Notes: a model not told the origin generated them from the sequence alone. DNA of 64,000 nucleotides from Eubacteriales bacterium (GCA_045654585.1 JAZONS010000052.1:15735-79734), one strand, 5' to 3'. Counted from the first letter of the stretch, positions 43,669 through 64,000 are shown. Program-made: numbers and translations.

Positions 43669-43790
43669 ACAGTGGGATGCGGAAGATAAACCGTAGAGCA
43701 AAGGCAGAGCTTCTAACCCGATTGCTCACTTCGTCCCTGCGGCAACTCCCCGTCCGCTGAGCACTTAAACGCTTATCATCCTACTCTGTT
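43669..43790 (-). promoter_or_regulatory. THF (tetrahydrofolate) riboswitch
   Basis: The minus strand AGAGTAGGATGATAAGCGTTTAAGTG...ACGAAGTGAG...GCATCCCACTGT parallels the E. siraeum THF aptamer (AGAGUAGAUGAUUCGCGUUAAGUG...ACGAAGCGAG...GCAUCCGCUC). Confidence 0.75.
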
Positions 43791-46416: not shown

Positions 46417-47265
46417 ATGCTTGCAAATCTTAACGACGTATTACTTGACGCGCAGAAAAACAAATATGCGGTAGGTCTTTTCAACACTACCGATACCGAT
46501 ATGCTCGAGGCTGTTATCTCAGCTGCCGAGGAGCTCCGCTCACCGGTGATCATAGGAACGGCAGAGGTCCTTCTTCCGTACGGAGAGCTCAGCCTTATTG
46601 CTCCCTCGCTTATTGAAGCGGCGCGCCGCGCAACCGTTCCGGTAGTAGTTCACTACGATCACGGCATAACCTTTGAGCGTTGTCTTGAGGCAATGAAGCT
46701 GGGCTTCACCAGCGTTATGTTTGACGGCTCGGCAAATGCCGCCTCCGAAAACCTCAGAGCTACCCGTGAGATAGTAAAAATCGCTCATGCTCTCGGAGTT
46801 ACGGTTGAGGGTGAGATAGGTCACGTTGGTCAGGCAGATAGCTCGGATAACGAGATAACAGATATGTATACGACGCCCGAGGAGGCTGTATCCTTCGTTG
46901 AGAGCACGGGCGTTGATGCTCTCGCTATTGCAATAGGCACGGCTCACGGAGCATATAAATCCAAGCCAAAGCTTGATATAGGCAGACTTCAGAAGATCAG
47001 AGCAGCTCTCGATACGCCCCTCGTGCTTCACGGCGGCTCGGGACTCTCGGATGACGATTTCAGGGATACGATAAAGTACGGTATCGCAAAGGTGAATATC
47101 TTCACCGATCTTTGTTTTGCGGGTGAGCTTGCAATGAAGGAGAACGCTACAAATGCCGAGCGCGGTATGTACGGTTATCTCGATACAAGAAATGCCAAGG
47201 TTGCCGCAATGAAGGAAGCTGTTAAGCAAAAGATCCTTCTCTTCGGCTCGAACGGAAGAGCATAA
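46417..47265 (+). CDS. Class II ketose-bisphosphate aldolase (FBA/tagatose-bisphosphate aldolase family)
   Basis: VVVHYDHG, EGEIGHVG, AIAIGTAHG and LVLHGGSG are class II aldolase motifs. Confidence 0.85.
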   Translation: MLANLNDVLLDAQKNKYAVGLFNTTDTDMLEAVISAAEELRSPVIIGTAEVLLPYGELSLIAPSLIEAARRATVPVVVHYDHGITFERCLEAMKLGFTSVMFDGSANAASENLRATREIVKIAHALGVTVEGEIGHVGQADSSDNEITDMYTTPEEAVSFVESTGVDALAIAIGTAHGAYKSKPKLDIGRLQKIRAALDTPLVLHGGSGLSDDDFRDTIKYGIAKVNIFTDLCFAGELAMKENATNAERGMYGYLDTRNAKVAAMKEAVKQKILLFGSNGRA

Positions 47266-47307
47266 TATGTCAAAAAACAGACGTATCCCCATTTTTTTAT
47301 TTTTCTA

Positions 47308-47337
47308 TTGACATATAAATATTTATTATGCTATAAT
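47308..47337 (+). promoter_or_regulatory. Promoter of giant gene 1
   Basis: TTGACA, 18-nt spacer, TATAAT. Confidence 0.6.
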
Positions 47338-47393
47338 TCAGGTGTGGTAAAAATTACAAATTATATATTATGCACAAAAAAGGAGAAAAACAA

Positions 47394-50300
47394 GTGAAAA
47401 AGACTAAATTAATTGTTGCTCTTGCAGCTGTACTTTGCCTGCTTGTTTCGATGCTTGCAGTTCATACGTTTGCAGCTGATGGCTCCGCGAGCTACGGCGG
47501 TCTTGCCTTAAGCGGAGGAACCGATGAAGTGACCGGCAAAAAATTTGCAATGGATTCTTATCATACCTGTAAGGATACCGAAACTATGCCGGTAACACTT
47601 GAGGCGTGGGTGTATATTCCCGATTCGCTTAAGGGCGAGGCGGTTGGAACGCTTTACGGTAATTACTGGGCCGCATCAAAATACGGCAATGCGTTTATCA
47701 ACTGGGCAATAGCTAAAGATGCTACGCCGAGACTTGTATGGAGCAGCTCTCTTGACGGAGAGATGTATGACGTGTACTTCAATGAGTCTCGCCTTCCTAC
47801 CGATGCATGGTCGCATCTTTCGCTCGTTTACGACGGAGATACGGGCGTTATATCCTGCTATGTAAACGGAGTGCTCACCGAAACGAAGTACTATTATCCC
47901 GCGATCGATCCCGACGTTCTCGAGCTTCCGATGATACTTGGCGGCGATAACAGAACGATGAATGCAAGCTATTTCAAGGGTGAGATAGGAGATATAACAG
48001 TTTATTCCGACGTAAGAGATGCCGATGAGATCAGCGCGGATTACGCAAAGGGAATGGATATGACTGTGGCGACGGCAGATCTTACCGATGCTATCTGCTA
48101 CTATGATTTGGATTCCGAAGATATAGGAAAGAACATCGTTGATGAAACCGGAAACGGATATGATATCATATACAGCAAAACATGGCTCACCGAGGCTGAA
48201 ATGGAAGCTATAAGAAGCGCATCCGGATTCAAGCCCTCATATTCCTTTGCTGTTATGGGAGATACTCAGATGCTGGCGGATTATTATCCCGAAAAGATGC
48301 CCACTCTTTATCAGTGGATAGCGGATAATGCTGCCGCGGATAAAAAGAATATCAAGTTTGCTATCGGTCTTGGCGATATAACCAACGATAACGGCAGAGA
48401 TGACAGATATGAGTACGACGAAGTAAACAAGGTATATTATAAGGTAAGTTCAACGGCTGACAGTACTGCTCCTTATACTCAGTGGGACGTGGCTTACGAT
48501 GCAATAACACTCCTTGACGGTAAAGTCCCTTATGCTCTTGTAAGAGGTAATCACCACGTATACCCCGATTATAACGGTGTAAGAATTGAAGGCTTCAATA
48601 CATATTTTGAAAACTCCGAATGGTTTACCGCGCAGTTTACCTCGGAAAACGGCGGCGGTCTTTATACTACGGGATCCGACCCCGTTACGGGTTATAAGGT
48701 ATCCTATGCGAATACGTATCAGACTCTGACGGTAAATGGTACAAAGTATCTGTTCTTGAATCTTGACTGGAAAATAACCGCAGATATCGTCAGCTGGGCG
48801 GAGCAGGTTATTAAAACTCATCCCGATCATAGCGTTATAGTCAGCACGCACTCTTATCTCGAGTGTGACGGAAACACCGAGGACCTCGGAGATACCACCC
48901 CGAGATCCAGCTATAACGGAGACGTGCTTTGGGATATTCTCTTCTCGAAGTATGCTAACGTTAAAATGATACTTTCGGGACATATAGACAGAGAAATGAT
49001 AGTAACCACTCAGGTTAAGGGAGATCACGGTAACACCGTTACGCAGATGCTTATCAATCCTCAGGGCTTTGACTCCAACCTCGGCGGAACCGCTATGATA
49101 GCTATGTTCTATTTCAACGAGAGCGGAGATGAGATCTTCGTTGAATGGTATTCACCAACGAAGGATAGATATTACAAAAACATTAATCAGTATGCAATAG
49201 ATCTTAATGCCGACGTGGAAAATGAGGCAACGCCTGCTTGGGACGGAGCGAACGTTGAAACGCCTGCAGGCTCGGGAACCGAGGCTGATCCTTACCTTAT
49301 AGCCAACGCGAAAAATCTTGCTTGGATCAGCACGAAGATCACCGATGGCGGCGTATCCTTCGCGGGTAAATACTTCAAGCAGACAGCGGATATAGACCTT
49401 GGTGAAAACATACTTACATCTATTGGTAGATATTACATAAACTCTACGAATATGGCAGCGTTCGGAGGCATTTACGACGGATGCGGTTATTCTATAAAGA
49501 ACGGAACTATAACGGGTGGCAAGCTTTATACCAGCACGAACAGTCCCGCCCCTGAGCGCTATTTCGATTACAGCGAGGGATACGGTCTCTTTGGTGTAAT
49601 TTACGGCGCAACCATTAAGAATATCATCCTTGATGACGTTCAGGTTGTAGGTAGAGGCGTAACGGGTGCTATCGTAGGCCGTGCGGCTGCTCCCGAATTA
49701 ACAAACACCGAGCTTGCGGGCTTCAACACTATCACAGGATGTGAGATCACCGATAGCGTAAGAATAGTAACTCTTCTTCCTACAACCGGTGGATCTGCTC
49801 CCAGATCGTCGGATGACGGACTCAGAGCGGGCCGTGTCGGATCTATATGCGGTATGGCTTACTCGACTAACATCAACGGATGTAAGTCGGCTGCAGAATT
49901 CAGCCTTTCGGGTGACTTCACTCTCGCAGGCGGTATAGTCGGAACAGCGGGACTTAACACCAGAATAGAGAACTCTGCATTCACGGGCGGCATAACGCTT
50001 GCCGAGTCTGCGAGTGGTCTTGTTTCTTATATCGGTGGCATAGTCGGTGCAATTTCTCCCTCTCTTAGCAGTATGGATATGATCGGCTCAAAGCTTAATA
50101 TAAGCGGTCCCTTCTATATAGGCAATTGCTACAACAGCGGTTACTTCACATATCTTGCGAATGAGGCTACTGACGTTTATTACGGCGGTATTATAGGCTT
50201 CTTCGGAGATCTTCCCGACGTAGATGACGATTCTATCGAGTATCCGTATCTCATCGAAAACTGCTATAACCTTTATGAAGCTTCAAAAACAGCTTCCGGC

Positions 50301-53300
50301 GTGAAGCTTTCGGGACTCGTGGCTTACGCTGTTCCCGGAGAAAAGACTCTTTACGTAAAGAATTGCTACTCCGTATCGGTTGAAGCGGAAGAGGGTGAGA
50401 GCAACGAGTTCAGATTCGAAGCCGGTGCTACCTCTATCGACGGTCTTGACGCTATCGCTTGGGAGAATTGCGGAACTCTTGCAAAGACTGATATGAGCGG
50501 CTACGTTTCCGCAGTGGATGCAAGAATTTCATCCGTAAGAGCAAACGGTGTATCTACTGTCTGGATCGTAGGCTCGGGAGCTCCCACCGTAACGGCTACC
50601 GAAGGACTTAAGTATCTTGACACCGCAAGTAACATATATTACGTTTATGAAAACGGCGCATGGGTTGCGGTAAAGAATATAACCATCACCGATAACTCTC
50701 TTGAGACCGAGTACGGTACTATTCCCAACAAGTATATGACCAATACTATGGTAGTATTTTCAAAATCAGGAAACACGTATACCTGTGTTGGTGGATTTGA
50801 TAAGCTTTCCGAGGCTGTCAGCTGCGCTATTAATTCGAAGTATGGACTGACGTACGATCCGAATGGCGAGTCTGTTATCTATTTCAGAGCCGACGTTACT
50901 ACTAAGGATAATATAAGCGGTAACCTCGGATATATCGTAGGTACGGTAGTATTTGACCTTGGCGGTCACACGTTGACTCAGGCAAACAGCGAGCCTATAT
51001 TCAGAGCTTATTCGAAGTATTTGAACGGAACGGCGGAAAGCTATCCCGACGTTTTCTATCTCCCTTCATACTACGTTGTAAAGAACGGTGATATAGTTCT
51101 TAATACAAACGGATTGTTCTATTTCGGTACGGACGGTTCGGGATACAATCTCTTCACAGGTCCCGCTCCTTACGAAGTAAAAACTCTTAACTGGACTCTT
51201 GACGGAGTTAATATATCTCTTGCGAGAGGCGCAACACTGAATAGCCTCCTCGGAAAATATAAGGAGAGCGCAGATCACAAGGTGGATAAGGCTACTCACG
51301 TGAACCTTACTATCAAGGATAACTGCGTACTCGATATAACCAACGCTCCTTCGAACTTCGTTCTCTTCGATGCAAATGATCCTATCACCGAAGGTATGAT
51401 AAACAGCGTATCCTACAATACCAACTCGATCGTTAACGTTGAGGTCGGTGCGTGCGATATTATCGCATCGAACAGTAAGTTTACACTCCAGTCTGTTCAC
51501 CCGAACAACGGATCGTCGGTGACGTACACCGAGGATGAAAACGGTAACGCGCTTACTCTCAGCATTGGAGGCACCGAGTATAATCACGAGGATCTTTATA
51601 CTCCTTACGGATATATAAACACCGAATATTCCAACGTTGCTTCGCACCCCATAATAGAATTCACCTATTCAAACGGTAAGTACACTTGCTATAAGTCGTA
51701 TACCGATCTTGGAGATGCATTATCGGGTAACAGCGGTGCAAGAATCCGTTGCAGAGACGAGGGAACTCTCGCTGTCGTTTATGTGCGTGACAATATCACT
51801 GTTTCTTCGACTATGAGCGGTAATATGGGTTATATCTGCGGAACGATGGTCATTGACCTTGGCGGAAATACCATTACTCAGACAAACAGCGCTCCTCTCT
51901 TCAAGGCGTTTGCCAAGTATGACGGATCCCGTATCGGAAATTCCAACTTCAAGCTCATAAACGGCGAAATAAAGCTTACGAATCACAGCTTGTTCCAAGT
52001 AAGTATTGAGGGTACACCTTATGCTAACGATATCACAAACGTGAAAAACGTTAACTGGACTCTTGATAATCTTACTCTTACTGTAGGATCTGGCGTTGCA
52101 AACGCATTTACGGAATTTAGCGATTACGGCTCGAGCACATACGACGGAAGAAAGATGGTGTTCAATCTTAATATAAGTGATAACTGCGTAATTGATATGA
52201 CAAATGCTGACGCAGGCACGCTTCTCTTCGGCGCAAACGATCCTGTTATTAAGAATACCGCCGGTACGACAAAGTGCTATACCGATTCCGAAGTAAATAT
52301 CAATGTTGGAGCTTGCAGTATACTTGCTGCGAGCGGTAAGGATCCCGTATGGCTTTCGGTAAATAAAGATAACGGCTCATCCGTAACCTTCACCAAGAAT
52401 GCGGAAAACGAGGGAGCTACCGTAACGGTCGGCGACGTGACCTGCACTTATGAGAGTCTCACCACGCCTTACGGATACGTTCCTCTTAAGTATGCGGCTT
52501 ATCCTATTGCCGAGTTCAAGGTTGTTGACGGTGAATACGTCTTTAACAAGGGTTACACTTACCTAAACCAGATATATTCAACGGCTAATCTTTGCTTAAC
52601 TAAAGGTTCGAAAGCTGTACTCTGTTTCAGAGATGATATCAAAACTTCCGATTATACAGGAAGTGGCTCTTACGTATCCGGAAACTTCGGATATAATATG
52701 GGCACTATTATAATAGACCTTAACGGTCATACTCTTACTCAGGATGCTCCTAACCCCATTCTGAGAGCGTACGCAAAGCATAATTCAGCGACTGCAACGG
52801 CTGAGGCAGGGTACTATGAGATCATTAACGGTAATATCGTTCTCAACTCCTATGGAATATTTGACGTCGGCGCTGAGGGATCACAATATCAAAGCTCAAC
52901 TGTCGATAAAACACTTTATTGGACGTTTGATAATATCAATATCTCCTTCGGCAAGAACGCAACCGTGACCTCGCTTATTCAGTTTACCGAGAAGCTTAAG
53001 GTTGCACGCAATATGGGTATGAACGTAACCATCAAGGAGAATTGTGAAATAGACTTGACAAATGCTCCCTCGAACTTCCTTCTCTTCAATGCAAACGAAA
53101 CCACGTCTAAATATACCAATTCCATTGTAACGTTTAACATCGAGGGCTTGCAGATAATTGGCGGTGCCAAGAGCTTCAAGTGGTTTGACGTTCACGCAAG
53201 CAACGGCTCGTCCGTAATATTTAGCAGCTCCGATAACGGATACGTTCAGCTTGAGCTTTCAAAGAAAGCAGCTTCCGGTCTTGATACTTCGGTAGTATTC

Positions 53301-54221
53301 AAGAACTCGAAAGGTGCAGCTCTTACTCTTGTAAAGATTTTCGAGGGAGAGGAAACCACGGTTTATACTCTTGCTCCCGCAAGCATAAAGAGCTTCGTTC
53401 CAAAGATGAGCTTAACGCTTGACAGAAATCTTATAATGAACGCCTACGTACCCGTAAATAACCTACAAAAGTTTACATTTGATGGTGTATTGTACGACGA
53501 TCTTACCGCATTATCCGAAAATAAGATAACGCTTGACGACGGTAACGACTACTATCTCATCACGATTTCTCTCGATGCGAAAGAGGCGGCAAGAACGGTT
53601 AAGCTCGTGGCAACAGTTGATATAGGCGGCAAGAGCGCAACGGCAACCTTCACCTTTAGCATACCCAAGTATGCAGAGAAAATTATAGATAGCGGAACCG
53701 ATACCGAGGTAACTCTTATCAAGGACGTACTTGCATATATCAAGTCGGCTTACACCTACTTCGGCACGAATGATCCCGAGGCTATCTCGAAGATCGATGC
53801 GATTCTCGGTAACTATTCCGCAAAACCCACCGTCGAAGGTGACTCTCTGGCAAGTGTCTCGGGCTTCAAGTCGGTAACCTTCATTCTCGACGGAACGCCT
53901 TCAATGAGATTCTATCTTGCAGACGGCGCGAATGCTGAGAACTATGCGTTCTACGTAGGCATCAAGAAGGTGGCAACCGAGGTATCGGCAGACGGTAGTT
54001 ACGTTGATATCGACGTTTATGCGTACGCACTCTGCGAGACCGTATCGGTAAAGGTCGGTGGAGTTGACGCGGGAAGTTTCCATATCAACAGCTATTATAC
54101 CTACGTCAGCGGTGACAAGTATACCGCAGAAAATAAAGCCGAGCTCGTGGCACTTACAGAATGCTTCTGGAAGTATCTTCAGAGCGCAAGAGCATACAGA
54201 GAGTCGGTAATCGAAGGATAA
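47394..54221 (+). CDS. Giant secreted modular protein 1: LamG + calcineurin-like metallophosphoesterase + GLUG-type region + three ~290-aa modules + conserved C-terminal domain
   Basis: GTG at 47394 lies 7 nt after AAGGAG; the ORF-track ATG at 47370 has no RBS. It has a signal peptide and a LamG motif WSHLSLVYDG...CYVNG. MPE motifs are FAVMGDTQ, GLGDIT, VRGNHH, STHSYL and SGHID. The GLUG-like region is GGIVG/GAIVG. Confidence 0.8.
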   Translation: MKKTKLIVALAAVLCLLVSMLAVHTFAADGSASYGGLALSGGTDEVTGKKFAMDSYHTCKDTETMPVTLEAWVYIPDSLKGEAVGTLYGNYWAASKYGNAFINWAIAKDATPRLVWSSSLDGEMYDVYFNESRLPTDAWSHLSLVYDGDTGVISCYVNGVLTETKYYYPAIDPDVLELPMILGGDNRTMNASYFKGEIGDITVYSDVRDADEISADYAKGMDMTVATADLTDAICYYDLDSEDIGKNIVDETGNGYDIIYSKTWLTEAEMEAIRSASGFKPSYSFAVMGDTQMLADYYPEKMPTLYQWIADNAAADKKNIKFAIGLGDITNDNGRDDRYEYDEVNKVYYKVSSTADSTAPYTQWDVAYDAITLLDGKVPYALVRGNHHVYPDYNGVRIEGFNTYFENSEWFTAQFTSENGGGLYTTGSDPVTGYKVSYANTYQTLTVNGTKYLFLNLDWKITADIVSWAEQVIKTHPDHSVIVSTHSYLECDGNTEDLGDTTPRSSYNGDVLWDILFSKYANVKMILSGHIDREMIVTTQVKGDHGNTVTQMLINPQGFDSNLGGTAMIAMFYFNESGDEIFVEWYSPTKDRYYKNINQYAIDLNADVENEATPAWDGANVETPAGSGTEADPYLIANAKNLAWISTKITDGGVSFAGKYFKQTADIDLGENILTSIGRYYINSTNMAAFGGIYDGCGYSIKNGTITGGKLYTSTNSPAPERYFDYSEGYGLFGVIYGATIKNIILDDVQVVGRGVTGAIVGRAAAPELTNTELAGFNTITGCEITDSVRIVTLLPTTGGSAPRSSDDGLRAGRVGSICGMAYSTNINGCKSAAEFSLSGDFTLAGGIVGTAGLNTRIENSAFTGGITLAESASGLVSYIGGIVGAISPSLSSMDMIGSKLNISGPFYIGNCYNSGYFTYLANEATDVYYGGIIGFFGDLPDVDDDSIEYPYLIENCYNLYEASKTASGVKLSGLVAYAVPGEKTLYVKNCYSVSVEAEEGESNEFRFEAGATSIDGLDAIAWENCGTLAKTDMSGYVSAVDARISSVRANGVSTVWIVGSGAPTVTATEGLKYLDTASNIYYVYENGAWVAVKNITITDNSLETEYGTIPNKYMTNTMVVFSKSGNTYTCVGGFDKLSEAVSCAINSKYGLTYDPNGESVIYFRADVTTKDNISGNLGYIVGTVVFDLGGHTLTQANSEPIFRAYSKYLNGTAESYPDVFYLPSYYVVKNGDIVLNTNGLFYFGTDGSGYNLFTGPAPYEVKTLNWTLDGVNISLARGATLNSLLGKYKESADHKVDKATHVNLTIKDNCVLDITNAPSNFVLFDANDPITEGMINSVSYNTNSIVNVEVGACDIIASNSKFTLQSVHPNNGSSVTYTEDENGNALTLSIGGTEYNHEDLYTPYGYINTEYSNVASHPIIEFTYSNGKYTCYKSYTDLGDALSGNSGARIRCRDEGTLAVVYVRDNITVSSTMSGNMGYICGTMVIDLGGNTITQTNSAPLFKAFAKYDGSRIGNSNFKLINGEIKLTNHSLFQVSIEGTPYANDITNVKNVNWTLDNLTLTVGSGVANAFTEFSDYGSSTYDGRKMVFNLNISDNCVIDMTNADAGTLLFGANDPVIKNTAGTTKCYTDSEVNINVGACSILAASGKDPVWLSVNKDNGSSVTFTKNAENEGATVTVGDVTCTYESLTTPYGYVPLKYAAYPIAEFKVVDGEYVFNKGYTYLNQIYSTANLCLTKGSKAVLCFRDDIKTSDYTGSGSYVSGNFGYNMGTIIIDLNGHTLTQDAPNPILRAYAKHNSATATAEAGYYEIINGNIVLNSYGIFDVGAEGSQYQSSTVDKTLYWTFDNINISFGKNATVTSLIQFTEKLKVARNMGMNVTIKENCEIDLTNAPSNFLLFNANETTSKYTNSIVTFNIEGLQIIGGAKSFKWFDVHASNGSSVIFSSSDNGYVQLELSKKAASGLDTSVVFKNSKGAALTLVKIFEGEETTVYTLAPASIKSFVPKMSLTLDRNLIMNAYVPVNNLQKFTFDGVLYDDLTALSENKITLDDGNDYYLITISLDAKEAARTVKLVATVDIGGKSATATFTFSIPKYAEKIIDSGTDTEVTLIKDVLAYIKSAYTYFGTNDPEAISKIDAILGNYSAKPTVEGDSLASVSGFKSVTFILDGTPSMRFYLADGANAENYAFYVGIKKVATEVSADGSYVDIDVYAYALCETVSVKVGGVDAGSFHINSYYTYVSGDKYTAENKAELVALTECFWKYLQSARAYRESVIEG

Positions 54222-54234
54222 GGAGGTAGAGAAA

Positions 54235-54366
54235 ATGAAAAAGTATATAATCCCCGAGCTTGAAGTAATCGAGCTTGAAGCAGAAGATATCATCACTACC
54301 TCGCCGGGTACGGAAACGACACCGAAAGAGGATAACGACGGTATCTGGGACTTCGATTTTGCTTAA
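54235..54366 (+). CDS. 43-aa acidic small protein (family member)
   Basis: The ATG lies 8 nt after AAGGAGG and 13 nt after the giant gene stop. Product is MKKYIIPELEVIELEAEDIITTSPGTETTPKEDNDGIWDFDFA. Confidence 0.65.
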   Translation: MKKYIIPELEVIELEAEDIITTSPGTETTPKEDNDGIWDFDFA

Positions 54367-54621
54367 TGTCAGAATTGTCCCTATGAAAACACCTCATCCA
54401 CCACTAAAGTGGTCCCCCTATACCTGACCACTCCCGTGTCGCGAACTTTCGCGAGGCGTTGCTCGCTCGGTTTGCTCGCGTTTGTGGGACTTCGCTTCAA
54501 AAAACAATACTTAATCGTTTTTTGTGCGCTCACCCACTGGGGAAGGCTAGAGGTATCCGGGACTTCGATCTCAGTTAATTTAAACCGAATCAAGAATAAC
54601 TGATTCAATATTTATAAAGCG

Positions 54622-54664
54622 ACAAGGCTTACCCGAGTAATCTTGGGTAAGCCTTGTTTTTTTG
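54622..54664. terminator. Bidirectional terminator between the giant gene 1 unit and araC
   Basis: 13-bp stem acaaggcttaccc/gggtaagccttgt followed by a T-run. Confidence 0.8.
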
Positions 54665-54737
54665 TCCTATATGTAAACTATTGTATTCAAAAAAGCAGTT
54701 ATTCGATGCATAGATAATAAAAAAGCGAAGCGAGATA

Positions 54738-55562
54738 CTACAAAACTGCATCGTTGATGACAATCTTCTTGGGGTAAAACATACGGTAATCGTTTGGAGT
54801 GTATCCCGTGAGCTCCTTGAAGCTTCGGTAAAAGCTTCGTTCGCTTCCGAAGCCGCATTCGATGGCAATATCAACTATCGTTCTGTCGGTGTTTTTTAAA
54901 AGGTGTCTGGCTGATTCAAGACGCAACATTGATAAGAGCGTGGAAAAACCAAATCCTGCCGCGCTGTTGATGCATCTTGAGAGATACTTTTCGTTGTATC
55001 CGAGCGCGGAAGCGGTTTTTGTGATAGTGATACGTTCGCTTTTATGGGAATCGATATAAGTTATAACCTTGCTTAAAACGTTATCGTCAATGTGCTTTTC
55101 TATGAGCGATACGTTATTAGAATAGTCGCCGACAATGTTGTATAAAAATCCTTTTACTTTGTACAGTGTAAGATTTCCGGTGCGTACTGTGTCTAAAAAA
55201 GCCGCGTATTCATCGATATTCAGCGGGAATACCGAGCGCTCGCCCGTATTCTTTTCGTTGGGAGCAAAAAATGATTGGATGAGTGATGGTAAAAAGTTAA
55301 ATCTAAAGTATTCCGTGCCCTCGGGTCTGTCATACGCGTGGGACTGAAAAGGGAAGAGCAGAGCGCAACTTCCTGCCGGGATCTTCTCGGAATTCTTGCC
55401 GAGAACGTGCAGAGTCAATTCTCCGGATGTAACCAGAAGGAGCTCTGCCGATGGGTGTATATGAAAATGCATTTTGCATTCTTCCGCGTTTCCGAGTTTG
55501 ATACTGTGCTCTTTTGCGATAAAAGATGTGGAAATTTCCTGCAAACTGTTGAAATATTTCAT
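54738..55562 (-). CDS. AraC family transcriptional regulator (cupin + HTH), divergent from giant gene 2
   Basis: Cupin-like N-terminus HFHIHPSAELLLVTSGEL and C-terminal HTH CGFGSERSFYRSFKELTGYTPNDYR. Confidence 0.85.
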   Translation of the reverse strand: MKYFNSLQEISTSFIAKEHSIKLGNAEECKMHFHIHPSAELLLVTSGELTLHVLGKNSEKIPAGSCALLFPFQSHAYDRPEGTEYFRFNFLPSLIQSFFAPNEKNTGERSVFPLNIDEYAAFLDTVRTGNLTLYKVKGFLYNIVGDYSNNVSLIEKHIDDNVLSKVITYIDSHKSERITITKTASALGYNEKYLSRCINSAAGFGFSTLLSMLRLESARHLLKNTDRTIVDIAIECGFGSERSFYRSFKELTGYTPNDYRMFYPKKIVINDAVL

Positions 55563-55586
55563 AAAAACCTACCTTTATGTAACCTT

Positions 55587-55616
55587 ATGGCATATATAAT
55601 ACCATATAATGGCATA
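55587..55616. promoter_or_regulatory. Candidate operator: ATGGCATA direct repeat (22-nt spacing) with inverted TATGGTAT between the copies
   Basis: ATGGCATA occurs at 55587-55594 and 55609-55616. ATACCATA lies at 55599-55606. The site sits in the araC / giant gene 2 divergent region. Confidence 0.35.
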
Positions 55617-55744
55617 AGTTGTCAAGAAGGTTATGCTATAATAAAGTCGAACGTACACGTATTTTCTATTTAATTATTATAATAGATACGTGAATTTTGT
55701 ATCATTTGAATTAACCAAATCAAGTATTCAAAAGGAGAATGGAA

Positions 55745-58700
55745 ATGAAAAAGAGAAGAATTTTGTTAATTGCTCTCTCATTGGTGCTCTTTGTTGGACT
55801 TGCGGTCTGTGCTTCGCTTTCGGTTTTTGCGGATAGCACTGTTACAGAGTCAACCTGGATATCTGCACCTGAGAAAACAATGGTAAAGTGCGCAGGCGCT
55901 AACTGCAATCACAAGGAATGTAATTACGTATATTCCTTCGCTGTTGTCGGCGATACGCAGAACCTTAATATCTATGACGTTAATAATAAGACGGAGCATA
56001 TGAAAGGACTTTACAACTGGTTACTTGCTAACAAGGAGAGCAAGAATATTCAGTACGTTTTAGGTCTTGGAGATATCACCCAGGCTTATTACAGGGGATA
56101 CCAGAGTGGTGTCTGGGAGCAGGAATGGGTTAATGCCAAGGAAGCGATATCCTTGCTTGACGGCAAGATTCCTTATTCTCTTGTAAGAGGTAATCACGAT
56201 ATCACTGCCGGCTTCAACGGAGCATTCGGTGTCGGCAATAAGTATTATACCGATCTTTCCGCGCTCGCTGCGACGAAGGACAGCGCAGATGAAAACGGCA
56301 GACCCATGGCGGGCTTCCTTAACGAGAATAAAATCGAGGATACCTACCGCAAGGTTATCATCGGTGACCATAAGTACATAATTTTCACTCTCGATTGGCA
56401 CCCTACGGAGGCATGCCTTGACTGGGTAGATACGATACTTGCCGAGAACTCTGACTATCAGGCTATAATAACGCTCCATTCGTTTATTTACCGTGACGGT
56501 TCTATCACGGACGATTACGAAGATACCTTCCCTTATGAAAATCTTTCGGGTACCCGTCCCAATTGGGAAGAGGTTTCAAATTCGGGCGGTAACGTTTTCC
56601 CGAAGGTTCTCTGGCAAAACGTTCTCTCAAAGCATAAGAACGTAGAGATGATCCTTTGCGGTCACATAGATGAAGACAATATCGTAACGACTCAGCTCAA
56701 GGGTGAAAACGGAAATACCGTTACCGCTATGCTCATAGACGGACAGACGATAGACTCTACCGTCGAGCCTGTTGGTATGGTAGCGATGTTCTACTTCTCG
56801 GCAGACGGCAAGGTTATGAACGTTGAGTACGTTTCAACAGTAAGAGAGGCTGCAGATAAAAACGCTTATCTTGGCAGTCAGAATCAGTTTGAGGTTTCTC
56901 TTGATTATACCGTATCAGAAACGGACAGCGGTTGGACTGAAACTGCTCACGGAAGCATTTTGACCGAGACTTATAACGCATATCCCTTCCACGTCCTTAT
57001 GGACGATGACTCGGACGAGAGCACGGATGCAATCCTCTTTGGCAGCTATTCGAGCTGGGAGGAAACGCTAAAAGCTATTCACGATTTCTGCGGCAATACA
57101 AGACCTTCATCGCACAAGAAGATGAAGACCTATTACATAGTTATGTCGAAGGACTATACCGATACATATGTTGGTATTCACGATAACCGCGCTGCTTACA
57201 ACTTTGGTAAAACCGTTCTTGATCTTAACGGAAAAACGCTGACCCTCGCATCGACTGACGGCGTATTTCTTCCGTTCTACGTAAATTCGAGCGGAAAATA
57301 TCCGAGATTTACAATCACGAACGGAAACATTGATATTACGGGCAAGGTTAAGCTTGTTGCGCTTCAGAGCGGATCTTCGGCTCAGGGAGAGACCGGTACG
57401 CTTGAGCTTTCTAACCTTAATATCACTTATTCTTCCGGTGCGACCGCAACGCCATTGATCACAACTTATAACGGTTCCGGCACGGGAAGCTACGTTGACT
57501 TTAAGGTTTCGAACTGTAATATAGATTCGTCTGCCGTAAACGGCGCTATGACACTGTTCGGTCTTAACGATACTAATAATAACAATCACGTGGCTTTGAA
57601 TATAACCGGCGGTAGCATCAAGGGATCAACCTTGGCTAACACTACTGTTTTCGCACTCAATAACCTGTCCGATAAGGTTACCTTCACTAAGGATTCCGAC
57701 GGTAATTATATGACCTTGACTCTTTCTGACAGTGCGACGTTTGACGGAGTGTTCTATTCCGACGTTAAGGATACGTATCTTGAGTTTGGTACGCCCGTTG
57801 CCGACGGAGATTCTTATCTCTATTCTCTTGAAAAATCGGGAGACGTTCTTACAGATTACGGAATTATACCCGAAAGCGCAACCTCGTATCCCTTCGTGCT
57901 CTTCAAAAACGGCGAGATGATTCATAAATCTTCGGACTGGAAGACTCTTATTGATACCGACTTTAAAGACACGGCAAATTATCAGTCGGGATGCACACTT
58001 CTTTTAAGAAGTGATTACACCACAAGCAATTCTTCAGGAGCTCCCTCTTATTTTGCTCGTATTGATGACTTGACGATAGACCTCGGCGGAAATACGTTGA
58101 CCCGTGGTTCAAAACATCTGTTCCAGATATTTGGAACGGAGTCTACAGCTCACTCTACTTCTATAAGGTTTATAAACGGAACGATAGCATCGGGAAGCAG
58201 CACAGCTCCCATAGCATTTAATAACTCAGATACTAATACCAATACCGATACGTTTGACTTCACCTTTGACGGCGTCAGATTCGACCTTAGCGCTTCAGTA
58301 ACCGGATCGCAGGGAATCGTAGTATGCTTCGGCGACGGTACTCAAAAAGGTGTCGATGCTACGATAACTCTCAATGACTGCACGATCTACCGAGGCTCGT
58401 CGACGAGAAAAATGACTCTCTTCGCACTTATCGACGAAAAAGATGGCAAGGTTAATAACAAAACAGACGTTAACGTAGTAATCAACGGCGGAGAGCTCGT
58501 TGCCGATACTATGTCGGGCATAACCCTTGCGACTTATAGCCCTGTGCGTGAAGGTATGACCGCCTCTGCGGACAGTCTTTCGTTAGGTAAGGGAAGTGAC
58601 GGTAAATACCTTATTGCAAAGCTTCCTGCGTCTTATACCGTTCCTACGACGACGTATGCTTTGCTTGACGGTAATTATGCTGTTGGAAAGGATTCGGATG

Positions 58701-61378
58701 ACGGCACGACTGCATATTGCAGCTTCAATAAGCTTACCACTCCTTACGGTGACATTTCAGCAAAGTATGCATCTATTGTAAATTATCCGTTTGCTGTATT
58801 TTATAACGGTGTATTCAAGAACGTATACAGCTCTTATAACAAGGCTATCGGCGGCGCGGTCGCTCTTATCGATACTGATGCCGAGGTAGCGGTATGCGAT
58901 ACTGCGTACGTAGTATTGAGAAGTAATTTTGTTGCAACAGATAACGGATTCTTCTCGGGAGCAAGAGGTAACTTGATCGTTGATCTTCAGGGTTACACTA
59001 TCAGCTCCTCTACTGCAGCTCTTGCGAGCATCAGTATGAATTATAACAACATAACCGATGAGGCTGCGGTGGAGAAGAATCTCAGCTTCACCTCAAATAT
59101 CACGTTCAAAAACGGTACCATCAAAAACGACAGATCGGGACTTCCGATCATCGCAATAGACCAGACGAACGGAAGCGTAACGACAGTTCCGGGCGCTACG
59201 GCAAAGAAGATCTACTTTGGATTTGATAACGTAACCTTCAGAACGGCAAGCCAGCCTGTTTTACATAATTATGACAAAACGTCCTCTCACGGACTTGAAA
59301 TTACCGTTTTTGCAAAGGATTGTACCTTTGACTTTACTGGGGCTACCGAAGGCGTAGCAATGATCTCGCTCTTTAACAAGCTTGTAAAAGCAAATATAGA
59401 GCTCGTTGGATGTAATGTAATTGCGAGCAAGCTTGATAGCTTCAACGTTTATAAGATCGGTTCCGACGATACCGCAAAGATCACCAAGGGCGATAACGGT
59501 GTTTATATGACCGTAACTCAGTCAACTGAGGCTCTTCCTACTACGGTATATAGTTTGTCTGACGGTGGAAGCGCATCCTTCTATCTCACATCAAGCTCCG
59601 GTGGAAAATACGTTTATGATCTTGGCGCTGATGAGTTTATAGACGGATATGGAACTATCCCTGCTCAGTATACCAACAAAGAGACCTATCCCGTAGTTCT
59701 CTTCGGCAACGGTTCTGTTACCGGATACACTACAGTAGCGAATGCATTTGCGGCTTTACCTACAACAGGTAACTATACCATTCTTGTAAGAAGAGACGTA
59801 GTCAAAGATACCAAGAAGGCTGTAAGTGCCTTCAGAGGAAATCTTACGATTGACCTTGATGGACATACGCTGACGGTAGCTGTTGACGGAAACTATCTCA
59901 TAGATATAACGCTCAGTGATGTTGGTACGGGCGCATCGGCAGGCTTCAGCTTTAAAAACGGTACGCTTAAGAAGGAAGGCGGACGCGGACTTGTTCTTTA
60001 CAACTATAATTCGAGCTTGAACGGAAGTGCAAATTATACGTTCGATTTCGATAGCGTAACGTTTGTTTCAACGGACTCCACCTATACACCTAACGTAATA
60101 TTCAATACATGGGAAGACGGTTTTACGAATGCAACTGTTGCGGCAAGTGATTATAAGCTCGTTGCAAATTCAACGTTCACGGACTGCGTATTTGATTTCG
60201 CAAGCTCAATAGACGGTGCGGTAATGCTTCCTCTTAACCATAGCAGTAACACGAGGGACAGAGTCGTGCATAACGTTACCGTTAACGGAGGTACTGTTCT
60301 TGCCGATACTGCGGCGGACTTTGCGGATAGATTCGTAAAGCTCGACGGAAACACTAACGGAAGAGCGGATTCTATCACCTTCTCAAAGGTAAACGGCGGT
60401 AATTACACGGCGCTTACTCTTCCTTACGGAACAGAAGCTCCTGCTGCAGAGTATAACGGACTTGTATTCGTCAAGATCTCCGATAACGGAACAGACGTGA
60501 CCTACAGACTCAGACCCGTAGAATTTGCTAATTTGAATTATGCGCCTAAGATGAGTCTTACTATTGACAGAAACCTTATAATGAATGCGTATATTCCTGT
60601 AAACTTTACACAAAAGTTTACATTTGATGGTGTAGAATATACAAATCTTACTGCGTTTGACGGTAAAACGGTAGAGATAGACGGCGCAATGTACTATCTT
60701 GTATCGGTAGAGCTTTCTGCAAAGGAAGCGGCAAGAAACGTTATTCTTGAAGCAACGGTTATGGCTGATGAGAATACCGCAACCGCAACGTTCACGTTCT
60801 CAATTGTGAAGTATGCCGAGAAGCTCCTTGGCGATTCCGCAGTTACGGAAACCGAAAAGACTCTTGTTCTTGACGTGCTTCAGTATATCAAAGCCGCATA
60901 TACCTACTTCGGCACTACCGATGCCGAGCAGATAGCAAAGATCAACAGCCTTCTCGGTGATTACGCATCGAAGCCTACCGTAGAGGGAAGTGCAACGGCT
61001 GAAACAACGGGAATGAAGAGCGCAACTCTCGTTCTCTCGGGCAAGCCTAGCATCAGGTTCTATCTTGCAGACGGTGCTGACGCTTCGGCGTATAAGTTCT
61101 TCATCGACGGAAAGCAGGTTAAAACCGTAATTTCCGATGACGGAGCATATGTTGATATAGACGTATACGCATATGCGCTCTCTGAAACCGTAACCTACAC
61201 GGTTGACGGAGAGAATGCGGGTAGCTTTCATATCAACGCGTACTACGCATTCGTCAGCGGCACGGGAGAAAACTCTTACGCCGGCGAAGATAAAGAAGCT
61301 CTCACCACTCTTACCGAGTGCTTCTGGAAGTATCTGCAGAGCGCAAGGGCGTACAGAGAGTCGGTTGTTGAAAACTGA
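55745..61378 (+). CDS. Giant secreted modular protein 2: metallophosphoesterase + four ~295-aa modules + conserved C-terminal domain
   Basis: The ATG at 55745 lies 7 nt after GGAG. Signal peptide is MKKRRILLIALSLVLFVGLAVCA. MPE motifs are FAVVGDTQ, GLGDIT, VRGNHD, LHSF and CGHID. Modules start near 56960, 57852, 58735 and 59642. Confidence 0.8.
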   Translation: MKKRRILLIALSLVLFVGLAVCASLSVFADSTVTESTWISAPEKTMVKCAGANCNHKECNYVYSFAVVGDTQNLNIYDVNNKTEHMKGLYNWLLANKESKNIQYVLGLGDITQAYYRGYQSGVWEQEWVNAKEAISLLDGKIPYSLVRGNHDITAGFNGAFGVGNKYYTDLSALAATKDSADENGRPMAGFLNENKIEDTYRKVIIGDHKYIIFTLDWHPTEACLDWVDTILAENSDYQAIITLHSFIYRDGSITDDYEDTFPYENLSGTRPNWEEVSNSGGNVFPKVLWQNVLSKHKNVEMILCGHIDEDNIVTTQLKGENGNTVTAMLIDGQTIDSTVEPVGMVAMFYFSADGKVMNVEYVSTVREAADKNAYLGSQNQFEVSLDYTVSETDSGWTETAHGSILTETYNAYPFHVLMDDDSDESTDAILFGSYSSWEETLKAIHDFCGNTRPSSHKKMKTYYIVMSKDYTDTYVGIHDNRAAYNFGKTVLDLNGKTLTLASTDGVFLPFYVNSSGKYPRFTITNGNIDITGKVKLVALQSGSSAQGETGTLELSNLNITYSSGATATPLITTYNGSGTGSYVDFKVSNCNIDSSAVNGAMTLFGLNDTNNNNHVALNITGGSIKGSTLANTTVFALNNLSDKVTFTKDSDGNYMTLTLSDSATFDGVFYSDVKDTYLEFGTPVADGDSYLYSLEKSGDVLTDYGIIPESATSYPFVLFKNGEMIHKSSDWKTLIDTDFKDTANYQSGCTLLLRSDYTTSNSSGAPSYFARIDDLTIDLGGNTLTRGSKHLFQIFGTESTAHSTSIRFINGTIASGSSTAPIAFNNSDTNTNTDTFDFTFDGVRFDLSASVTGSQGIVVCFGDGTQKGVDATITLNDCTIYRGSSTRKMTLFALIDEKDGKVNNKTDVNVVINGGELVADTMSGITLATYSPVREGMTASADSLSLGKGSDGKYLIAKLPASYTVPTTTYALLDGNYAVGKDSDDGTTAYCSFNKLTTPYGDISAKYASIVNYPFAVFYNGVFKNVYSSYNKAIGGAVALIDTDAEVAVCDTAYVVLRSNFVATDNGFFSGARGNLIVDLQGYTISSSTAALASISMNYNNITDEAAVEKNLSFTSNITFKNGTIKNDRSGLPIIAIDQTNGSVTTVPGATAKKIYFGFDNVTFRTASQPVLHNYDKTSSHGLEITVFAKDCTFDFTGATEGVAMISLFNKLVKANIELVGCNVIASKLDSFNVYKIGSDDTAKITKGDNGVYMTVTQSTEALPTTVYSLSDGGSASFYLTSSSGGKYVYDLGADEFIDGYGTIPAQYTNKETYPVVLFGNGSVTGYTTVANAFAALPTTGNYTILVRRDVVKDTKKAVSAFRGNLTIDLDGHTLTVAVDGNYLIDITLSDVGTGASAGFSFKNGTLKKEGGRGLVLYNYNSSLNGSANYTFDFDSVTFVSTDSTYTPNVIFNTWEDGFTNATVAASDYKLVANSTFTDCVFDFASSIDGAVMLPLNHSSNTRDRVVHNVTVNGGTVLADTAADFADRFVKLDGNTNGRADSITFSKVNGGNYTALTLPYGTEAPAAEYNGLVFVKISDNGTDVTYRLRPVEFANLNYAPKMSLTIDRNLIMNAYIPVNFTQKFTFDGVEYTNLTAFDGKTVEIDGAMYYLVSVELSAKEAARNVILEATVMADENTATATFTFSIVKYAEKLLGDSAVTETEKTLVLDVLQYIKAAYTYFGTTDAEQIAKINSLLGDYASKPTVEGSATAETTGMKSATLVLSGKPSIRFYLADGADASAYKFFIDGKQVKTVISDDGAYVDIDVYAYALSETVTYTVDGENAGSFHINAYYAFVSGTGENSYAGEDKEALTTLTECFWKYLQSARAYRESVVEN

Positions 61379-61393
61379 AAGGAGGAGTGATTA

Positions 61394-61573
61394 ATGCAGA
61401 ATTCAAAATGCAGAATGCAGAATGAAAAGAATGAATTAGTGGTTATGAGTTATATAGCTCCCGAGCTTGAAGTGATCGGGCTTGACGCAATGGATATCAT
61501 CACTACCTCACTCGGAACGGAAACGACTCCGAAAGAAGATAACGACGGTATCTGGGACTTTGACCAAGGTTAA
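61394..61573 (+). CDS. 59-aa acidic small protein (family member with N-terminal extension)
   Basis: The ATG lies 7 nt after GGAGGAG. Product is MQNSKCRMQNEKNELVVMSYIAPELEVIGLDAMDIITTSLGTETTPKEDNDGIWDFDQG. The conserved core could alternatively start at the ATG at 61445. Confidence 0.6.
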   Translation: MQNSKCRMQNEKNELVVMSYIAPELEVIGLDAMDIITTSLGTETTPKEDNDGIWDFDQG

Positions 61574-61585
61574 TACTTGATTTAC

Positions 61586-61635
61586 CTGTACCGCGAAGTA
61601 ATAATTTTCTTCGCGGTACAGAACTTTATTTTTTC
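61586..61635 (+). terminator. Terminator after small ORF 2
   Basis: 13-bp stem ctgtaccgcgaag/cttcgcggtacag followed by a T-rich tract. Confidence 0.75.
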
Positions 61636-61667
61636 TAAAACTTGATTATTTAAAAGGAGAAAATGAA

Positions 61668-64000
61668 ATGAAAGCGTTGCGCATAAGAAAAATAACAACA
61701 GTCGCTTTTGTTCTTATCGCTGTTTTGATTTCGCTGCTTTTTGTTCTTGATTCTGCGGCTGCAGAATCAGAGAGTGGCGTTACAGCGGGCAGCAAGGGCG
61801 AGATCGACGTGTGGCTTATCGCAGGTCAGTCAAATGCGGTTGGCTTTGGAAGTGACGGCTTGTCGGCAAAGTATCTTGAAGACAAAAGATATACCGAGGG
61901 ATTTGATAACGTTCTTTTCTGGGGTAAGTATGAATCAACGTACAATCCCGAGGCTTTCGTTCCCGTAACGGTCGGACTTGGAAAGCAGTCAGCAACGAAT
62001 ACCGCAACCGTAGGCGCTGAGATAGGAATGGCGGCGGCACTTGACGGTAACGGAAGAATGAATGCGATAATCAAACGTGCTGTCGGTGGTTCTTACCTTT
62101 ATCCGACGACTTATAGCTCGGTATCGCAGAATTCGGGTACGTGGACGTCCCCATCTTATTTGGAAAAGTATTCGATAGATACCGAGGGAAATAAGCTCGG
62201 TAAACTCTACACAGAATTTATACAGACCACAAAAGACGGTATAGATATGCTTATTGCCGACGGTTATACTCCGGTCATTAAGGGCGTCTGGTATATGCAG
62301 GGCGAGGCGGAAACACCGACTCAGCTTTATGCAGATGCATACGCGGAGCTTCTGACTATGCTTATCGGCGATATGAGAGAAGACCTTGGAGAGATAGTCA
62401 ACAAGGACCTTTCGAATCTTCCGTTTGTAATGGGAAAAATAACGAGAAATCCCGAATATGATATTCCGGAATTTATCGACACCGTAAATGATGCTCAGGT
62501 AGCTGTAAGCTCAACTGTTGCGAACTCTTATATAGTTGACACAACGGGAATGCCGCAGATAGACGGATGGCATTATACCGCCGATTCTCAGCACGAGATT
62601 GGCGTTCAATTTATAAACACCGTCATCAATTCGTCGGGTAAATACAGTGTTACCGCGAGCGGAAACGGCGTGAGTCTTAGCGGCGGCGGAGCAAAATCGG
62701 TAGGTGATGAGGTGACCGTTACGTTTACCTCTCTTGATGGTTTTGAGTTATCATCCGTAGCTATGAAGGTTGGTGCGGGAGAAGCTGTTGATATTACGGA
62801 TGCTCTCACGAAGGACACAGAGAACTCCGATGTTTATTCGTATACGTTCGTTATGCCTTCAGGCAACGTTGCGTTTCTGATAAATGCTACGGACCTTAAT
62901 GCGGAGTCCACCGAATACGGTCTTATTCCCTCAATGTTTACAGATGCGGAACAGTATCCGTTCATTCTCTTCAAGAGCGGAGAATTTGTATACGCCTTTG
63001 ATGATTGGTGCGATTTTGTAAACAGTAACAGTATCATGGGTTGTACTTTGCTTCTCAGAAGAGATTATGATACTTCGGAGTCCTCGGGAAGTCCTTGGGC
63101 GCTTTGCCATAGCGACGAACTCACTATAGACCTCGGAAACCATATCTTCACTCGCGGAATGTACCATATGTTCCAGTGCCTTGGCAGAGATGAGAAGGTA
63201 TATACCTCAACTATAACGGTTAAAAACGGAACTCTCAAGTCTACGTTCTCATACGTTAACGCATCGGGTACGACGACGGGAGCATCTCCACTTATCGTTT
63301 TCAACAATTCCGCAAGCTCAACAACCGTTGATAACTTTAACTTTATTTTTGACGGAGTAACCTTCGACGTAAGCTCGGGCAGAGGTATTGTAGCAAGCTT
63401 CACGGACGGAACGTGCGGTACTGACAATACAATAACGCTTAACAACTGCACGATATACAGAGGAGCATCTACCTCGGCTATGACTCTTTTCGCCCTTGCG
63501 GAAACGAGCGGTAATAAGAATGATATTAAAGTTACTATAAACGGCGGTAAGCTTGTCGCTGATACTCTCTCAAAGCTGACCTTCGCTACGTATGACGTTG
63601 AGCGTGAGACGGGCGAGGGAAGTCCCGACAGTCTTACGCTTAATACAGACTCAAGCGGTAATAAATTTACCGTTGAGCTTCCTGTAAGCGCGGGAACACC
63701 TTCGCAGATGTTTGCCTTTACGAAGGGCGGTTATGCAGCTGTAAAGCTTTCGGATGATGGCACGACCGCAAAATATACTCTCGAATATCTCGGCACTCCG
63801 TATGGAAATATAGACGCAAAATACGCATCTGCAGCCGATTATCCGTTTGTATTATTTAAAAACGGAGCTGTACTGACCGCATTCTCTAACTGGAAGACGT
63901 TTATTGATTCGACGATGTATAATTCCGCAGATTACAAGACGGGATGCACGCTTCTGCTCCGCAGAGATTACAGCACGTCGGAGGCGTCCGGAAATGCGTG
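61668..64000 (+). CDS. Giant secreted modular protein 3 (3' end outside window): SGNH/sialate-O-acetylesterase-like head + the same ~295-aa modules
   Basis: The ATG follows AAGGAG and the frame is open to the window end, so it is absent from the ORF track. Signal peptide is MKALRIRKITTVAFVLIAVLISLLF. The motifs IAGQSNAVG, WYMQGEAE and DGWHYTADSQ fit the SASA/DUF303 esterase fold. Modules start near 62910 and 63792. Confidence 0.75.
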   Translation, partial: MKALRIRKITTVAFVLIAVLISLLFVLDSAAAESESGVTAGSKGEIDVWLIAGQSNAVGFGSDGLSAKYLEDKRYTEGFDNVLFWGKYESTYNPEAFVPVTVGLGKQSATNTATVGAEIGMAAALDGNGRMNAIIKRAVGGSYLYPTTYSSVSQNSGTWTSPSYLEKYSIDTEGNKLGKLYTEFIQTTKDGIDMLIADGYTPVIKGVWYMQGEAETPTQLYADAYAELLTMLIGDMREDLGEIVNKDLSNLPFVMGKITRNPEYDIPEFIDTVNDAQVAVSSTVANSYIVDTTGMPQIDGWHYTADSQHEIGVQFINTVINSSGKYSVTASGNGVSLSGGGAKSVGDEVTVTFTSLDGFELSSVAMKVGAGEAVDITDALTKDTENSDVYSYTFVMPSGNVAFLINATDLNAESTEYGLIPSMFTDAEQYPFILFKSGEFVYAFDDWCDFVNSNSIMGCTLLLRRDYDTSESSGSPWALCHSDELTIDLGNHIFTRGMYHMFQCLGRDEKVYTSTITVKNGTLKSTFSYVNASGTTTGASPLIVFNNSASSTTVDNFNFIFDGVTFDVSSGRGIVASFTDGTCGTDNTITLNNCTIYRGASTSAMTLFALAETSGNKNDIKVTINGGKLVADTLSKLTFATYDVERETGEGSPDSLTLNTDSSGNKFTVELPVSAGTPSQMFAFTKGGYAAVKLSDDGTTAKYTLEYLGTPYGNIDAKYASAADYPFVLFKNGAVLTAFSNWKTFIDSTMYNSADYKTGCTLLLRRDYSTSEASGNA

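Follow-up and report, generated by a model that had tools for sequence, protein, structure and literature searches.

We analysed a 64,000-nucleotide (nt) stretch of genomic DNA from an Eubacteriales bacterium (GCA_045654585.1, JAZONS010000052.1:15735-79734), referred to below as the window. Three consecutive giant genes, g1, g2 and g3, occupy its last part (47370-64000, plus strand). The complete genes g1 and g2 end in the same type of C-terminal domain, the tail, and each is followed by a gene for a short acidic peptide. We consider it probable that the giants are paralogous, Sec-secreted modular hydrolases, and that the tail and the coupled peptide are a shared device for sorting, assembly or cell-surface retention. 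A broader claim is made only tentatively: the constant tail and the YxxP-type acidic peptide may together make up a two-gene system not described before, which would sort, assemble or anchor surface enzymes and adhesins and occur widely among gut and rumen Clostridia. Surface enzymes of modular build whose heads are swapped are already known; the repeated module, the tail and, above all, the tail-peptide gene pair are undescribed. A role in sorting or retention is proposed because the tail is mostly the last domain, is common to many unrelated heads per genome, and replaces SLH or dockerin modules in homologues.

Tail domain and peptide genes

Open reading frame (ORF) calling and translation gave 2283 amino acids (aa) for g1 (47370-54221, +), counted from the first ATG. 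The product of g2 (55739-61378, +) has 1879 aa, or 1877 aa if started at the third codon, as in a database copy that is 100% identical (P0001). The last gene, g3 (61668-64000, +), is incomplete, with 777 codons up to the window end. All three have signal-peptide-like N-termini. A preliminary description of this DNA had reported three consecutive plus-strand giants (2275, 1877 and more than 777 aa), an AraC regulator and small ORFs; all were found again, with the sizes revised as given here.

A promoter-like site, TTGACA-18-TATAAT with a TG, precedes g1 (47308-47337, +), and matches the sigma-70 consensus at 12 of 12 positions, which is a consensus match alone. Position 47308, where the preliminary description had the array begin, is the -35 box of this site. 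The peptide genes lie 13-16 nt past the giant genes. The first, pep1 (54235-54366, +), starts 13 nt past the g1 stop, and a terminator-like hairpin with a 17-bp stem and a T run (54621-54658, +) ends the g1-pep1 unit. Pep2 (61394-61573, +) is a 59-aa ORF 15 nt past the g2 stop, with its conserved 42-aa part starting at 61445. Downstream of it, a 13-bp hairpin with a T-rich tail (CTGTACCGCGAAG / CTTCGCGGTACAG; 61586-61634, +) was read directly from the sequence; its 10-nt loop caused the hairpin scan to miss it. Both pep1 and pep2 are preceded by GGAGG ribosome-binding sites. With this promoter, the hairpins and the ribosome-binding sites, each giant gene and its peptide gene look like one operon. 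Between the two units lies a gene for an AraC-family regulator (54738-55562, -; cupin and HTH_18 in Pfam), divergent from g2.

The tail spans ~290 aa in g1 (53340-54218, +) and ~280 aa in g2 (aa 1598-1879; 60530-61375, +). The two copies are 60% identical (E 7e-107), and the g1 copy had no Pfam match. The AlphaFold2 model of the last g2 module plus the tail (pLDDT 90.6) predicts for the tail two immunoglobulin (Ig)-like beta-sandwiches, joined and followed by helices, with five helices. Its best Foldseek match was the Ig-helix-Ig arrangement of myomesin, with an E value of 1.4e-3 and a low TM score. The proteins end in ...AYRESV(I/V)E(G/N), without an LPXTG motif or a hydrophobic tail. Pfam and NCBIfam searches of g1-g3, extended to E 10 for the tail, detected no SLH, dockerin, LPXTG, CWB/CWB2, choline-binding or LysM element. 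The lack of LPXTG, SLH, dockerin and choline-binding anchors, noted earlier by eye, thus holds with both databases.

Neither the tail nor the repeated module gave anything real in Pfam, NCBIfam or PDB sequence searches, whether run with single sequences, a 66-member family profile or a module profile. Antibody VH matches to the module in the PDB sequence search (E ~0.01) were judged to be chance. The preliminary description had been unable to match the locus to a described system. The same came out here, as scaffold and tail match no described family in Pfam, NCBIfam, PDB or Foldseek, and the domain searches placed neither the modules nor the tail in a characterised adhesin or S-layer family. 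As modelled, the module and the tail appear to be two folds without a detectable solved relative.

Pep1 (MKKYIIPELEVIELEAEDIITTSPGTETTPKEDNDGIWDFDFA) has 43 aa, carries a net charge of about -9 and lacks a signal peptide, and the pep2 ORF includes the same 42 residues. The family is in neither Pfam nor NCBIfam, and the literature held nothing relevant on the peptide motif or on small ORFs downstream of surface proteins. TRAP/MtrB matches to the peptide profile in PDB (per-domain E ~5) were judged to be chance. A profile search with the peptide returned 931 clusters of near-identical peptides, the top matches being 72-95% identical, versus 30-50% for the giants. In this close family the C-terminal half, DIITTS(P/L)GTETTPK(E/D)(D/E)NDGIWD, is almost invariant, even beside tails that are ~40% identical, and the N-terminal half varies. 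Over the 24 codons of the peptide core, pairs differ at 8.4 synonymous versus 1.3 non-synonymous codons, indicating that the constraint acts on the peptide itself rather than on the DNA or RNA.

An exhaustive hidden Markov model (HMM) search of 1.8 billion representatives placed the peptides in a superfamily that forms 929 clusters when grouped at 50% identity. Its members are all free-standing, with 30-85 aa, and share the consensus MKKYxxPE(L/I)E(I/V)(I/V)xFxxxD(V/I)ITTS, followed by an acidic tail often containing Trp or Phe. The window has a distant member of its own, the 38-aa pep3 (MKKYETPIIEVIVIESTDIIRTSPDTPIIDFDDFLEIN; 2628-2744, +), located 20 nt past an 850-aa LVIVD/beta-propeller ORF (55-2607). 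This ORF lacks the body module, the tail domain and any obvious signal peptide; the tie between the peptide family and the tail is thus not a strict one. As a database curiosity, the 90%-identity cluster that contains pep1 (54235-54363) is headed by a ~800-aa Zobellia restriction endonuclease, an evident clustering artefact.

The small ORFs could instead be precursors of peptides made on the ribosome and modified after translation (RiPPs). A YxxPx[L/I] leader would then be bound by a RiPP recognition element (RRE) enzyme encoded elsewhere and cut near the boundary of TTS and PG, and the core GTETTPKEDNDGIWDFD would be modified and exported. We regard this as unlikely, and as equally unlikely that the linkage to the giants serves co-expression, as for a signal or an enzyme cofactor, instead of sorting. 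Lasso peptide precursors have a YxxPxL leader, Thr at position -2, and a core with Gly1 and Asp/Glu at positions 7-9, encoded next to B (RRE plus protease) and C (cyclase) genes. Compared with this pattern, the peptide has the YxxPxL motif, and a core from Gly25 fits Glu8/Asp9, as the lasso ring needs; the close family likewise has Gly, then Glu/Asp at positions 8-9. This Gly...Asp/Glu spacing is not kept across the superfamily, the would-be penultimate leader residue is Ser instead of Thr, and the leader exceeds the canonical spacing by 4 residues.

Y4-x-x-P7-x-L9 is (nearly) invariant throughout the superfamily, and discrete lasso-peptide RREs and the linear polyphosphorylated peptide family in Bacillota recognise leaders by the motif [Y/W]xxPx[L/V/I/F/A] (PMC13381572, PMC10368454). 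Like the RRE-dependent leaders of Bacillota, such as paeninodin and the linear polyphosphorylated peptides (PMC13381572), the peptides have ~35-60 aa and a [Y/W]xxPx[L/V/I] start followed by a beta-strand-like stretch. Single members also had sub-threshold NCBIfam matches to the StsA sactipeptide (E 0.003) and to the paeninodin-family lasso peptide (E 0.19). Unlike those RiPPs, the peptides have no biosynthetic genes nearby. The 64-kb window has no RRE/PqqD, lasso cyclase, protease, radical-SAM enzyme, kinase or dedicated transporter for them, and no such enzyme recurred in the flanks of 28 + 50 related loci. Their conservation is inverted compared with most RiPPs, with a variable N-terminal half and an invariant "core", and a genome has at least 17 of them, all linked to secreted proteins.

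The conservation pattern also bears on a reading as polymorphic toxins or contact-dependent competition factors, with the small ORF as the immunity protein. A large secreted protein immediately followed by a tiny ORF is the layout expected of such pairs. Here, the variable part is N-terminal and of carbohydrate-active or esterase type, and conservation lies at the C-terminus. Paralogues that differ in their heads and have divergent tails carry a nearly invariant peptide, the opposite of co-variation, and Pfam and NCBIfam gave no toxin, RHS, LXG or T7SS domain. We rejected this reading on the conservation pattern and consider it highly improbable.

Linkage and head swapping in relatives

On related contigs every giant gene is followed by a peptide gene. 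The order is AraC, a giant with a metallophosphoesterase (MPE) head, peptide, a giant with a SASA head, peptide, and sometimes a third pair. To these we added 80 metagenome loci, fetched with distant members of the peptide superfamily. In this sample 43 of 67 peptide genes started at most 60 nt (median 17 nt) past a same-strand ORF of at least 250 aa, versus 2.6% of random positions. Nearly all complete upstream proteins passed a simple signal-peptide heuristic. The tail HMM matched 30 of 57 upstream proteins, and 21 of these 30 matches ended at most 6 aa from the C-terminus.

The heads in the 80 loci included GH20 with CBM32, MucBP and FIVAR, as well as Beta_helix_3, GLUG, Flg_new_2, DUF285, and LamG with CBM32. 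Judged by these domain matches, they are the repertoire of Gram-positive surface enzymes and adhesins. No further accessory gene was recurrent in the flanks of these distant-member loci. In four loci only, the peptide gene was followed by a small lipoprotein-like gene, with a signal peptide ending in Cys and a Thr-rich linker (e.g., L042, 6264-6698; L115, 6147-6635).

With g2 as the query, 205 relatives were retrieved; nearly all belong to uncultured Clostridia sampled in gut metagenomes, ruminant and other. A homologue search with the tail profile returned mostly short fragments and added little. When tiled with the window domains, the relatives consisted of one or more heads, one to six modules, and the tail at the extreme C-terminus. 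The architectures were MPE-modules-tail, LamG-MPE-GLUG-modules-tail, MPE-module-SASA-modules-tail and GH95-CBM32-tail, plus BD-FAE and LRR forms. The placement of SASA varied, being N-terminal as in g3 or behind an MPE and one module. For example, g3 is colinear with residues 692-1420 of a 1926-aa relative (P0045; 40% identity). More distant SASA-headed relatives (30-35% identical) have 1595-1952 aa and end in the tail domain, followed by the peptide gene.

In other Clostridia the head blocks were joined to known anchors. One protein carried the LamG-MPE-GLUG block with SLH instead of modules and tail (P0100), and another the LamG-MPE head with a dockerin (P0120), indicating that the modules-plus-tail region sits where known anchors sit. 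The resemblance to SLH-, dockerin- and LPXTG-anchored enzymes of Firmicutes, such as cellulosomal and S-layer-associated glycoside hydrolases, extends to the signal peptide, to interchangeable catalytic or carbohydrate-binding heads, and to one constant C-terminal module common to many paralogues per genome. In contrast to SLH, dockerin, CWB2 and sortase signals, the ~280-aa tail has no sequence similarity or significant fold similarity to them, and the coupled 43-aa peptide gene has no counterpart in the SLH, dockerin and LPXTG systems. A further parallel is the cargo of the type IX secretion system (T9SS) of Bacteroidota, in which unrelated secreted enzymes and adhesins have a beta-sandwich sorting domain (the CTD) at the extreme C-terminus. 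The T9SS CTD has ~80 aa, is recognised by an outer-membrane machine and has no partner peptide. It thus differs in phylum, envelope, length and the missing partner, and the likeness noted is one of layout.

The closest relative, 80-95% identical, was the metagenome-assembled genome (MAG) "Clostridia bacterium RGIG2037" from goat colon, with the related locus (L001) on a contig that also stops inside g3. By these relatives, the window comes from an uncultured Clostridia bacterium of the ruminant gut. At least 15 loci of this MAG carry the peptide/tail system. Further heads found there were a GH95 fucosidase with CBM32-type domains, a BD-FAE esterase, LRR_5 with DUF4886, and a triple LamG with MPE and SASA. 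The GH95 and GH20 heads of the relatives scored 118-354 bits. The preliminary description had proposed a cassette system with different activities on a common scaffold. The combinations of head and scaffold do vary between relatives (GH95, GH20, BD-FAE, LRR, MPE and SASA heads); the system is not specific to this locus, which belongs to a large gene family represented by at least 15 loci in one related MAG and by hundreds of metagenome clusters. As for the scaffold, the paralogy of the giants stands, and it is the tail with the 43-aa peptide gene, rather than the body module, that is truly constant.

Beside the loci, just one other gene family recurred, that of the AraC-type regulators: 11 of 28 related loci had a total of 12 copies.

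Compared with L001, the giants have dN/dS values of 0.11-0.14 (g1 0.14, g2 0.12), and the neighbouring aldolase 0.09. The individual g2 domains, including the four modules and the tail, range from 0.11 to 0.13. These values indicate that the giants are maintained genes, with a scaffold as constrained as the catalytic head. The synonymous divergence from L001 was uneven along the array (window 46417-64000): 0.84 for g1, 0.86 for the AraC gene, 0.52 for g2, 0.49 for the aldolase and 0.27 for g3. Such sharp differences between neighbouring genes suggest that the array has a mosaic history, for instance through recombination or gene conversion.

Heads, body modules and proposed role

The heads of the three giants differ, as had been noticed at the outset, and LamG plus MPE (g1), MPE alone (g2) and SASA (g3) all scored above their Pfam cut-offs. 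In g1, the signal peptide is followed by LamG (aa 72-222; Laminin_G_3, 64 bits), the MPE (aa 292-539; Metallophos, 30.1 bits, cut-off 21.5) and GLUG-like Gly-rich repeats (aa ~636-1110). The LamG and MPE parts of the head first described for g1 are thereby upheld. Its GLUG part (PF07581) stayed below threshold, with one repeat at 14.6 bits (cut-off 20.5, E 0.046); in a related protein from another locus (L100), GLUG reached 29.7 bits. The g2 head, aa 66-310, follows the signal peptide directly (Metallophos, 29.7 bits, cut-off 21.5).

In g3, the signal peptide precedes a SASA/SGNH esterase domain (aa 46-320; PF03629, 79.5 bits, cut-off 24.8) with the motifs GQSN at aa 53, QGE at 211 and DGWH at 299. 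This agrees with the sialate-O-acetylesterase-like head recognised earlier from its GQSN motif. The small beta-sandwich behind it (aa 326-412), also part of the first description, is only weakly like Flg_new_2 / InlB B-repeat (17.2 bits, cut-off 23.6).

Calcineurin-like metallophosphoesterases (PF00149) have the canonical metal motifs DxH / GDxxD / GNH[DE] / H / GHxH. The MPE heads of g1 and g2 have GDTQ / GLGDIT / GNH[DH] / H / GHID, with Gln in place of the motif I His and Asp in place of the second motif V His. The variant set is nearly invariant over 66 relatives, and the heads therefore likely keep a non-canonical metal site.

Behind the heads, the giants share a repeated body, as the preliminary description had stated. 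By BLASTP, g1 and g2 are 31% identical across 1267 aa (E 2e-118), g2 and g3 40% across 444 aa (E 1.5e-82), and g1 and g3 24% across 459 aa (E 7e-10). The repeat unit, a module of ~290-300 aa, was defined from motif mapping, internal repeats and an alignment of eight window copies. There are three copies in g1 (50700-51593, 51594-52460 and 52461-53339, +) and four in g2 (56939-57847, 57848-58735, 58736-59638 and 59639-60529, +). At least two are present in g3, the first at 62904-63791 (+) and the second begun before the window end.

An AlphaFold2 model of g2 module 4 alone, based on the family alignment (pLDDT 90.9, pTM 0.91), was compact and nearly all beta. Foldseek found no significant neighbour for it (best E 1.1 in PDB and 0.13 in BFVD, TM at most 0.32). 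The weak matches were mostly right-handed beta-helices: pertactin, autotransporter passengers, tailspike depolymerases of phages, PL3 pectate lyase and the binding region of SRRP from L. reuteri. Rung-like motifs (IDLGGxTLT, KNGTI, FDNVTF, NCxID and INGG) recur with a ~35-residue periodicity by eye. Because of the weak beta-helix neighbours and this periodicity, the module is probably a compact beta-solenoid, assigned to no known family. The periodicity read by eye recalls beta-helix stalks and enzymes; the module differs from these in being a separate repeat unit of ~295 aa, capped at its N-terminus and closed by a C-terminal hairpin of its own.

These neighbours bring up the idea that the giants are mainly non-enzymatic adhesins or structural proteins of the envelope, with modules that bind host or plant glycans and heads that are degenerate binding domains. 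In its favour are pertactin, the autotransporter passengers, the SRRP binding region and the tailspikes among the weak matches, the adhesin-typical MucBP, FIVAR, Flg_new_2, LRR and DUF285 domains of the relatives, and the two canonical His ligands missing from the MPE heads. Intact SASA catalytic motifs in g3, the bit scores of the GH95 and GH20 heads, and the near-invariance of the variant MPE motifs, suggesting a maintained active site, argue for enzymes. We therefore think it improbable that the giants are mainly adhesins, although for the MPE paralogues a chiefly adhesive role without catalysis is a minor possibility.

For the modular hydrolases that we favour, the following course may be envisaged. 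The signal peptide would be cleaved and the giant exported through Sec. The variable heads would act on glycan-associated ester or phosphoester bonds, and in paralogues also on glycosidic bonds; gut and rumen Clostridia degrade complex glycans. The one to six beta-rich modules of each giant would be spacers or binding surfaces, holding the head away from the cell. The peptide would be co-transcribed with the giant and made 1:1 with it through translational coupling. The constant tail and the peptide would then serve a common step, which may be export competence, folding or assembly, or cell-surface retention, and would replace the SLH, dockerin or LPXTG modules of other Firmicutes. Given its invariant and variable halves, the peptide is suggested to be an adaptor, one half facing its particular giant and the other a single cellular partner common to all. 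As to origin, a peptide resembling a RiPP leader may have been recruited to serve a secreted protein as its stoichiometric partner or chaperone. AraC-type neighbours would turn on individual enzymes upon particular substrates, as in sugar induction. The display of hydrolytic activities on the cell surface, as worded in the preliminary description, is likewise something we infer.

Several observations weigh against this proposal. No homologue of known function backs the role of the tail or of the peptide. The chief obstacle is that the peptide, without a signal peptide, is hard to reconcile with an action outside the cell beside a Sec-exported partner. The tail is internal in two relatives (L016 and L030), with the peptide gene still at the gene end, and some superfamily members trail tail-less proteins (window 55-2607; L034). 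The loss of two His ligands means that catalysis by the MPE heads is not guaranteed. For the module, all Foldseek matches are non-significant, and the beta-solenoid assignment is based on weak neighbours and a periodicity read by eye.

The question touched here is how gut and rumen Clostridia without a sortase signal, SLH or dockerin hold enzymes on the cell. The locus points to one tail domain and an obligatory peptide partner that dozens of enzymes and adhesins in a genome would have in common. If the tail and the peptide are indeed a sorting or retention device, a large set of giant ruminant-MAG proteins now called "hypothetical" would be explained. The surface proteome of these Clostridia could be predicted from a sequence tag, and a role would be assigned to a small-protein family that ranks among the larger unannotated ones in the gut microbiome. 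The pair would then be an alternative to sortase/LPXTG, SLH and cohesin-dockerin systems.

Neighbouring genes and other features

A phage origin of the locus was rejected, as the window showed no phage genes and matches to viral folds were non-significant. A low-GC stretch (34%; window 28001-30000) holds two ORFs without a Pfam match (28395-29102 and 29184-29909). Three further features are ordinary: a lysine riboswitch (19551-19728, -) upstream of an amino-acid ABC transporter, a THF riboswitch (43668-43790, -) upstream of genes for an ECF S-component and a Mur-ligase-family protein (Mur_ligase_M/C), and one tRNA (13128-13201, -).

Unusual domain fusions were found in three places. Beside related arrays (L003/L004, 18271-20132, -) there is a gene for a 1762-aa product with TIR_2, SecA DEAD, P-loop and SEC-C domains, an unusual SecA-TIR fusion. 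In the window, a ROK-family domain is fused to an APH phosphotransferase domain (687 aa; 25209-27272). An XRE-type HTH is fused to a PfkB sugar kinase (402 aa; 45177-46385), directly upstream of the class II aldolase gene and the g1 promoter-like site.

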